The notes under the pieces are model-generated. The model had not been told where the DNA came from. It did not search any database and worked only from the letters and a program-made list of their open reading frames with translations. From sequence record OR845257: a DNA stretch of 58,949 nucleotides. One strand, written 5' to 3'. Source of the stretch: Escherichia phage ECO95 1-6-1. Below, piece after piece: positions 6,089 to 6,952 of the stretch. Position 1 is the stretch's first letter; every line of letters begins with the position of its first letter. The position numbers were made by a program, and so were the translations under genes.

Positions 6089-6156
6089 TTTTTACAGTTT
6101 TTTCAATATACACTTTTACTTATAAAAATGGAATATCTAGTTTTTCATATATCTTT

Positions 6157-6185
6157 TTGACGTACTTCGCGTGATAACTTGGTGC
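6157..6185 (+). promoter_or_regulatory. promoter-like element TTGACG + conserved spacer (tacttcgcgtgataact) with poor -10
   Basis: matches the -35 and spacer of the promoter family; no recognisable -10 or downstream plus-strand gene. Confidence 0.3.
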
Positions 6186-6206
6186 CGACGCGTGGTGTCC
6201 ACGTTC

Positions 6207-6488
6207 TTTGTAACCTCGTTTGTAACCTAGCTCAAGCCCTTATCCACGTAGGCTTGGGGCCATTTCCACGGAAAGGTTACAAACGGGGTCACTACGATCC
6301 CCTATATACATAAAACATGAGTAAATGTATATATTATTACTGTTTACTTATATTCTGTCTCTATTCCTATCCTATTATCCTTATATATTTGTAACTTGTA
6401 ACTTTATAGGAGAAAAACGCAGTAAAAACAGTGAGATAATCATAGGTTACAAAGCGAAAAACTTGTAACCCGTCTGTAACTTGTAACC
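6207..6488. repeat. cluster of at least 9 TTGTAAC(C/T) / GGTTACAA motifs in both orientations within an AT-rich non-coding region
   Basis: copies at about 6207, 6219, 6275 (inverted), 6388, 6396, 6446 (inverted), 6463, 6474, 6481; DnaA-box-like TTATCCACG at 6240-6248. Confidence 0.6.
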
Positions 6489-6952
6489 TGATACTGCTGC
6501 CGTGGACTTGGTCAGCACCCGCCCACCGGGTAAAACGGTAATACAATCAACCGATTGCGGGGCTAAAGCGCCGTTCCGCCCGCACCCCCGTCACCGCCGC
6601 GATTTGGAGCCTCCCTACGGGAGAAATTCGGTTTTTCGGCTAAGTTATTGATTTCGCAAAGCGGGGCTATGGCAGATCCGGCCCATTTTCCGAGAAAGCG
6701 GCTCTGCGCACCCCCGGGCTGACCGACAGGCGGGTAAGTACCTTTTTGAAATCGTGACCGTAATTCTTTCTCAGCCGCCCGCCACGCCACGCAAGATAGA
6801 TCGTAATAGGTAGTCATACCTTACACCACGATCGCCCCGTCTAGCCCCCATAGCGGCCGAAATAAGGGCATACAATAACCCCCCGTCACACCATATAACA
6901 GGGAATACCATAAAAAGGGGAATAGATAGCCATATATAGCCGCACACCAACG

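Follow-up and report, generated by a model that had tools for sequence, protein, structure and literature searches.

We analyzed a stretch of DNA of 58,949 nucleotides from Escherichia phage ECO95 1-6-1 (sequence record OR845257). We refer to this whole stretch as the window, and all coordinates are positions in it. Our focus is a cluster of short repeats at 6208-6489, located between gene 1, which encodes the helix-turn-helix (HTH) regulator gp1, and the cohesive end site (cos) of the phage. We propose that this region is probably the phage replication origin, and that the repeats (iterons) would be bound by the C-terminal domain of the primase-helicase gp2. The array contains the following features, one per line.

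6208-6216, minus strand: iteron AGGTTACAA of the gp1-proximal set; exact 9-mer, with an equivalent site in relatives
6220-6228, minus strand: iteron AGGTTACAA of the gp1-proximal set; exact 9-mer
6274-6282, plus strand: iteron AGGTTACAA, inverted, at the spacer-side border of the gp1-proximal set; exact 9-mer
6303-6388, no strand assigned: AT-rich spacer, a candidate DNA-unwinding element; GC content 22-23%
6389-6404, minus strand: two overlapping direct iterons (AAGTTACAA twice, in a 7-bp register) at the border of the spacer; best-conserved block when relatives are aligned
6444-6452, plus strand: iteron AGGTTACAA, inverted, of the cos-proximal set; found in the 9-mer scan, with a site in relatives
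6463-6489, minus strand: three direct iterons (GGGTTACAA, the degenerate AAGTTACAG, and AGGTTACAA) of the cos-proximal set; found in the 9-mer scan, with sites in relatives

The two sets of iterons, with direct and inverted copies, flank the 86-bp AT-rich spacer. The hexamer TGTAAC was not enriched in the window overall (17 copies, with 18.6 expected). Nine of the 17 copies, the number that a first-pass annotation of this DNA had claimed for the region, lie within 279 bp (6209-6487). The binomial probability of finding at least 9 of 17 copies in this interval is 2.8e-17, or ~6e-15 after correction for window position. We found that the repeat unit is the 9-mer AGGTTACAA, with five exact copies and three copies with one mismatch in 6208-6489; the ninth copy (6474-6482) is degenerate. 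The other 58.6 kb contained three scattered matches with one mismatch, and there was no second iteron cluster in the 58.9-kb genome. The iteron at 6274-6282 pairs with 6218-6229 as a 12-bp inverted repeat, and its position is kept in all close relatives. The other properties that had been read from the sequence were also borne out. The GC content is 18-27% at 6090-6179 and 22-30% at 6300-6449, the primase-helicase gene runs to 5711, and the HTH gene occupies 5747-6088 on the minus strand. There is no credible open reading frame (ORF) in the region: neither the position nor the frame of the small ORFs (44-59 amino acids) is conserved among relatives, and the curated record of phage Siskin has no annotation between cos and gene 1.

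A megablast search with 5700-6900 matched chi-like Salmonella phages, including vB_SenS_BPS4 (99.7% identity) and Siskin (97.6% identity), and many of the matching records end at query base 1013, which is position 6712 of the window. Judged by these matches, the window is a chi-like Salmonella phage (Chivirus) in a circularly permuted assembly, and the true genome ends are inside it, at 6712/6713. The left end has the following feature.

6701-6712, minus strand: cos 12-nt 5' overhang GGTGCGCAGAGC at the genome left end, the reverse complement of which is found here; the overhang was determined experimentally in Chi, Siskin and SeF2 (PMC4342425, PMC6498227, PMC9409062)

The Siskin record annotates the cos 5' overhang at bases 1-12. 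The cos site was absent from the first-pass annotation. It is ~210 bp from the last repeat of the array, and the array sits in a non-coding left end of ~640 bp between cos and gene 1.

More than 20 relatives, belonging to at least eight genera, share this layout 3' of their primase-helicase gene, with a repeat word that varies. The positions of the repeats, measured from cos, are nearly constant in close relatives. A direct triplet (~226/233/244) comes first, with an inverted copy (~262), and then a direct pair (~311/318). An AT-rich region of ~100 bp follows, and beyond it are an inverted copy (~422-432) and more copies (~476-499). This arrangement and its spacing from cos are shared by Chi, Siskin, BP12C, Seifer, Smarc6, Stilesk, SP-030, SAP012, PibeRecoleta, Smarc5 and Enc34, and the arrangement is less regular in Salado and two uncultivated virus genomes (UViGs). 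Burkholderia phage AH2, Achromobacter phage phiAxp-2, Erwinia phage pEp_SNUABM_08 and Salmonella phage SLP-22 have iteron arrays as well, in each case 3' of the primase gene and with a word particular to that phage. Proteus phage DoubleBarrel has repeats that probably form an array, with no single clear word, and eight further metagenomic or genomic loci have the layout. In 12 relatives, the sequence of the spacer is not conserved, whereas its length (~100 bp) and its AT content (63-80%) are. The array directly follows the gp2 terminator in Enc34, PibeRecoleta, the UViGs, two other loci (L031 and L032) and others; in the window, it is ~500 bp past the gp2 stop codon and gp1 is inserted between them. 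Most chi-like phages conserve only 6358-6712. The adjoining 6089-6357 is a mosaic segment common to ~18 records that carries the gp1 promoter region, the gp1-proximal iterons and a DnaA-box-like site.

The repeat word differs from phage to phage and changes in concert within an array. The words, and the phages in which they were found, are as follows.

GTTACAA: the window, Siskin, BP12C, Chi, Seifer, Smarc6, Stilesk
GTAACAA: FSL SP-030, SAP012, PibeRecoleta, Salado, Smarc5
ATTACAA: Enc34
GTAACAGTT: two UViGs
AGGTCCGAA: Burkholderia phage AH2
AACCTGCAA: Achromobacter phage phiAxp-2
ATGGGACA: Erwinia phage pEp_SNUABM_08
CTGACACAC: Salmonella phage SLP-22

In the arrays of SP-030, Smarc5, Stilesk and PibeRecoleta, the edge nearest to cos (~226-270 from it) retains one or two sites that belong to the other class. 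These edge sites are either relics of recombination boundaries or a sign that the third base is tolerated. ATTACAA iterons were also found in a Salmonella Newport assembly (GCA_037206595.1), in which a 4.1-kb contig (ABQSFR010000046.1, locus L035) has a chi-like segment with gp3, gp2 and the putative origin; this contig may be carry-over of phage in the culture or contamination. Within the spacer (6303-6388) and its equivalents in relatives (L003-L008 and L018-L020), AAATAG(A) motifs are frequent, and in many, not all, relatives a TATATAGGG-like element closes the spacer at its GC-rich boundary. Possible roles of these motifs and the TATATAGGG-like element are those of a promoter, of a priming site or of a part of the unwinding element. 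A GC-rich palindrome, GGGGATCGTAGTGACCCC as read on the minus strand, is located at 6285-6302, between the spacer and the first gp1-proximal iteron, and is specific to the subgroup of the window, Siskin and BP12C.

The repeat word covaries with the last ~110-145 residues of gp2, and with this domain only. The gene and the features at its 3' end are as follows.

3126-5711, plus strand: gp2, primase-helicase of 861 amino acids and proposed initiator; identified by Pfam and 99% identical to Chi gp2
5283-5708, plus strand: gp2 C-terminal domain (amino acids ~720-861), a proposed iteron-binding winged helix, with K804 and S809 at the tip of a beta hairpin
5720-5740, plus strand: terminator-like hairpin between the convergent genes gp2 and gp1, annotated as a terminator in Siskin

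The Pfam domains of gp2 are Prim-Pol (2.5e-11), PriCT_2 (6.6e-06) and DUF5906, a helicase of the superfamily 3 (SF3) type (2.6e-18). Roughly 200 phage records have a homologue of gp2 of nearly full length. Two pairs of phages separate the C-terminal domain from the rest of gp2. SP-030 (GTAACA) and Smarc6 (GTTACA) have 100% identical gp3 proteins, and the small terminase subunit (TerS) of each is 100% identical to that of the window. Their gp2 proteins are 96-100% identical up to about residue 720, after which identity is 80, 53, 65, 76 and 48% in consecutive blocks of 30 columns. Stilesk (GTTACA) and PibeRecoleta (GTAACA), which were isolated on the same host strain, are 100% identical in gp3, TerS, TerL, PolA and SNF2, and in ~750 amino acids of gp2, followed by blocks of 60, 80, 86 and 70%. 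By these alignments, the two pairs are independent natural swaps of the gp2 domain, in different genera. The window and Chi have the same iterons and gp2 proteins that are 99% identical, together with unrelated gp1 proteins and unrelated flanks around the gp1-proximal iterons.

We modelled residues 690-861 of gp2 with AlphaFold2, using an alignment of 31 sequences. In the model (predicted local distance difference test score, pLDDT, of 85.6), model residues 96-105 form a helix, after which 108-116 and 119-126 make up a beta hairpin, with K804 and S809 flanking the hairpin tip. We read the gp2 C-terminal domain as probably a winged helix. Sequence searches with gp2 and with its C-terminal domain against solved structures matched only the NrS-1 primase-helicase, in the helicase region (1e-06). 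A Foldseek search of the PDB gave nothing significant, and a homology search with the C-terminal domain alone returned two matches only.

Among the first 12 genomes, the GTTACAA and GTAACAA classes were told apart by only three gp2 columns, each of which is in the last 145 residues. A rule based on one residue, in which S809 goes with GTTACAA, fitted these 12 genomes and failed on loci found later: P0019 and P0023 have S809 with ATTACAA iterons, and P0016 has P809 with GTTACAA iterons. Residues 804 and 809 as a pair partition four iteron classes across 22 tabulated genomes, in a correlation among related sequences that is uncorrected for phylogeny. The combinations are as follows.

K804 with S809 or P809: GTTACAA
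K804 with A809 or T809: GTAACAA
C804: ATTACAA
S804 with K809: GTAACAGTT

The rule of two residues gave the correct iteron word for all four loci that were looked at later (P0005, P0024, P0008 and Yersinia Rostov 43). Between the domain of P0005, which has ATTACAA iterons, and GTTACAA-type domains, only K804C and V814I differ within amino acids 780-820, and K804C is the sole non-conservative change. It is possible, and in our estimate rather doubtful, that these residues make up a wing-tip code, with the first iteron base assigned to residue 804 (K for G, C for A) and the third to residue 809 (S or P for T, A or T for A), and that the C-terminal domain and iterons are a mobile cassette that has been exchanged repeatedly between phages sharing a host, creating private replicons in the Casjensviridae. 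Private replicons, if this is true, would perhaps avoid competition, cross-interference or hijacking during co-infection.

In the model that we favor, the origin would consist of the two sets of 9-bp iterons (consensus AGGTTACAA) on either side of the 86-bp spacer, just 3' of the gp3-gp2 replication operon, with the mosaic accessory gene gp1 inserted between operon and origin. The cohesive ends would join after injection of the DNA. The C-terminal domain of gp2 would then bind the iterons, with the wing-tip residues K804 and S809 helping to read the variable bases. Assembled on both sides of the spacer, gp2 would melt 6303-6388, load itself as the helicase and prime synthesis for the phage DNA polymerase I. 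The locus has the following properties of an iteron origin used by an SF3 primase-helicase: a cluster of iterons, an AT-rich region between opposed iterons (6274-6282 on the plus strand and 6389-6404 on the minus strand), a position 3' of the initiator gene, SF3 helicase and primase domains in the putative initiator, and covariation of the initiator domain with the iterons. The first-pass annotation had described the region as a candidate replication origin or regulatory hub. The core of that idea, an iteron origin, is supported by the conserved layout, the covariation with the gp2 tail and the AT-rich spacer; the parts given to DnaA and the HTH regulator are not.

Several points weigh against this proposal. 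We found no data on binding, melting or initiation in chi-like phages in the open-access literature. The GC skew, which the first-pass annotation had put forward as a check, gave no independent support: the cumulative curve follows gene orientation and falls monotonically overall, and a local maximum near 5900 coincides with the switch in gene orientation. The phages in the swap pairs are not isogenic outside the left arm, as judged by whole-genome comparison, which leaves formal room for a binding protein encoded in the right arm. A four-taxon scan for incongruent sites, which covered 107 ORF families with homologues in all four genomes and has little power, found only column 809 in gp2 and single hits in other proteins too. 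Arrays of the GTAACA type keep one GTTACA site, and vice versa, and the base proposed to be discriminated may therefore be tolerated. Finally, the 3' end of gp2, gp1 and the iterons are contiguous, and co-transfer as one block could be hitch-hiking rather than functional coupling. Hitch-hiking is countered because the window and Chi keep matching iterons inside a segment that is otherwise replaced. Our search of the open-access literature also found no description of an origin, iterons or initiator specificity in chi-like phages, and a preprint on transposon sequencing (Tn-seq) of JS26 was uninformative on the origin.

Comparison with other replicons supports the view that the array would be an origin of an already known type, with a self-loading SF3 primase-helicase as initiator, in the style of Rep of the Staphylococcus aureus pathogenicity islands (SaPIs) and the alpha protein of phage P4. 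In the SaPI Rep origin, the iterons are directly downstream of rep, two or more of them on either side of an AT-rich center and in opposed orientations, and the initiator has a C-terminal winged helix (PMC9371898). There are six to twelve iterons, read in an island-specific manner by a self-loading SF3 helicase initiator, which is fused to a primase in SaPI5 (PMC9371898). The window matches SaPI Rep and PriRep in layout, position and coupling of specificity. The differences are that the iterons are 9 bp here and 5-6 bp in SaPIs, that the window is from a lytic cos phage of a Gram-negative host in which an accessory HTH gene is often located between initiator and origin, and that the gp2 tail has no detected sequence similarity to any solved structure, the chi-like case being known from sequence alone.

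The alpha protein of P4 reportedly has a primase, an SF3 helicase and, at its C-terminus, a winged-helix domain that binds the origin by reading short repeats (Yeo et al. 2002 and Ziegelin & Lanka 1995, cited in PMC4234260). gp2 likewise has a primase and an SF3 helicase in a single polypeptide, with a C-terminal domain that may be a winged helix. The primase of P4 alpha is not known to be of the Prim-Pol type, to which that of gp2 belongs. P4 depends on ori and crr, two cis elements that lie apart, in contrast to the single cluster of the window, and the P4 domain was not found in sequence or fold searches. In lambdoid phages, iterons lie beside an AT-rich region, and the iteron sequence and the DNA-binding domain of the initiator O change together between related phages. 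The window family resembles them in that the iterons adjoin AT-rich DNA and the word and initiator domain covary. The lambda ori, in contrast, is inside the O gene, and O is neither a helicase nor a primase and relies on host DnaB and DnaG. The archaeal plasmid pRN1 has a gene for a small regulator (orf56) followed by one for a protein with Prim-Pol, SF3 helicase and winged-helix domains (orf904), and an essential cis element located in the 166 bp that follow the gene (PMC4234260). The same domain structure, with PriCT_2, has been noted in linear phages (PMC4234260). The order in the window is similar, with gp3, then gp2 (Prim-Pol, PriCT_2, DUF5906), then the downstream array. The element in pRN1 is a stem-loop of ~100 nt, whereas that in the window is an array of iterons around an AT-rich spacer.

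We consider it unlikely that the gp2 C-terminal domain binds the repeats at a place where replication does not start, with the array acting as an enhancer like P4 crr, as a site for copy control or handcuffing, or as a brake on transcription coming from gp1 or cos. The covariation shows coupling to gp2 only, not initiation, and there is a precedent in P4, in which alpha also binds repeats in a second region where replication does not start. Against this, the genome has no second iteron cluster, and the AT-rich spacer flanked by opposed iterons has the geometry of a melting site (PMC9371898).

There is little chance that the repeats are operators of gp1, or of gp3, and that the region is a hub for transcriptional control of early genes. 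The two proteins are encoded as follows, together with an AT-rich region next to gp1.

2848-3129, plus strand: gp3, a small protein upstream of gp2 with a 4-bp overlap; annotated as a transcriptional regulator in relatives
5747-6088, minus strand: gp1, HTH regulator, gene 1, a mosaic accessory neighbor; Pfam HTH_37/HTH_3
6090-6180, minus strand: AT-rich region upstream of gp1; GC content 18-27%, within the segment (6089-6357) that is replaced in most relatives

The repeats adjoin gp1, promoter-like hexamers overlap some of them, and gp3 has its regulator label in relatives, with no Pfam match found for it here. However, the window and Chi have the same repeats and unrelated gp1 proteins, and arrays without gp1 are present in at least eight phages (Enc34, PibeRecoleta, UViGs, AH2, phiAxp-2, pEp08, SLP-22 and DoubleBarrel). 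These two findings rule out gp1 as the reader of the repeats and contradict the earlier suggestion that the HTH protein acts on them. gp3 is ruled out because it is identical in both swap pairs, which have different repeats; no gp3 column separates the two classes, and there is no copy of AGGTTACAA near the promoter of gp3-gp2. Promoter and terminator scans gave numbers of hits no better than those in shuffled sequences. The AT-rich stretch at 6090-6180, from its position in the replaced segment, is probably the promoter/operator region of gp1 and not part of the origin or the conserved array. gp1 and its upstream region (5747-6357) form a mosaic cassette with unrelated alleles in Chi, SP-030 and Seifer. 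Salado has an ORF of 177 amino acids without an HTH at the position of gp1, and several genera have no gene there.

The chance is slimmer still that the repeats are cosB-like sites at which TerS positions the terminase at cos for packaging. The array starts ~210 bp from the cos nick, the terminase resembles lambda gpA (Pfam), and the terminase genes are more than 10 kb away, so that cis sites near cos are expected (PMC4342425). The repeats also resemble the R sites for Nu1 in lambda cosB in being located within a few hundred bp of cosN. In contrast to lambda cosB, the repeats of the window family do not covary with TerS. TerS is 100% identical across phages with different words (the window and Smarc6 compared to SP-030, and Stilesk compared to PibeRecoleta), which rules it out as the reader. 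In addition, the AT-rich spacer and inverted geometry are like those of an origin, and a separate pair of repeats fits the role of packaging sites better.

6557-6565 and 6661-6669, minus strand: two TAGCCCCGC repeats (GCGGGGCTA on the plus strand), ~104 bp apart, between cos and the iterons; recurring in relatives

Each TAGCCCCGC repeat is followed by an ATCAAT/TTGATT-like motif. The pair is nearer to cos than the iterons are and is kept in most of the Chi-type left ends compared, whatever the iteron type. The second site is altered (GGCCCCTC or GGCCACTC) in Seifer, Smarc6, Smarc5, Salado and UViGs. By position and recurrence, the TAGCCCCGC pair is a better candidate than the iterons for terminase (cosB-like) sites, and the non-coding end next to cos appears to carry separate signals for replication and, probably, packaging.

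We give almost no credence to an origin that depends on host DnaA, with the repeats as accessory sites for host factors. The feature in question is the following.

6240-6248, plus strand: TTATCCACG, DnaA-box-like (8/9 match), in the loop of a local hairpin; judged to be a chance match

This site is beside AT-rich DNA, and it is present where the first-pass annotation had placed it. However, boxes with up to one mismatch are about as frequent in the window as expected (9 observed, 7.8 expected), the site is in the mosaic segment, and only the window, Siskin and BP12C have it among 16 phage left ends scanned. The phage also encodes its own primase-helicase and DNA polymerase. Two phages isolated on the same host strain, Stilesk and PibeRecoleta, have different repeat words, and a host factor is therefore unlikely to be the reader of the repeats. 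A structured non-coding RNA with the repeats as stems is just as improbable: 6175-6300 folds better than shuffled sequences (z of -2.4 and -3.0 on the two strands), but the inverted iterons themselves account for this stability, which differs little between the strands. Relatives have other sequence between the iterons, without a compensatory pattern, and there were no Rfam 15 matches at the gathering score in the whole window.

Chi-like phages are flagellotropic and widely isolated, and have often been proposed for biocontrol of Salmonella. A proposed origin of ~280 bp, a named initiator domain and natural variants in specificity make the model directly testable. The main value of the locus is in the clean natural swaps of specificity, which offer an easy test. 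The array also marks a cis element to be kept intact when chi-like phages are engineered, and the idea that DnaA or the neighboring HTH protein acts at the array is corrected.

The cos overhang differs in other genera. Stilesk is annotated with an 11-nt overhang, GTGCGGAGAGC (bases 1-11), and in one metagenomic relative (L034) the corresponding position, ~680-700 bases beyond the gp2 stop codon, reads GGTGCGTGGACTCGCG. The right genome end, ~540 bp to the right of cos (6713-7250), likewise has no annotation in the curated record of Siskin; ORFs of 84-93 amino acids are present there in the window, and the region is possibly cosQ-like. Four records named as Staphylococcus, Enterococcus or Listeria phages (OR850235.1, OR844947.1, OR847083.1 and GU169904.1) have gp2 protein or DNA matches that are 83-100% identical to the window phage (87-100% at the DNA level). 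The chi-like sequence in these records is probably due to contamination or mislabelling.

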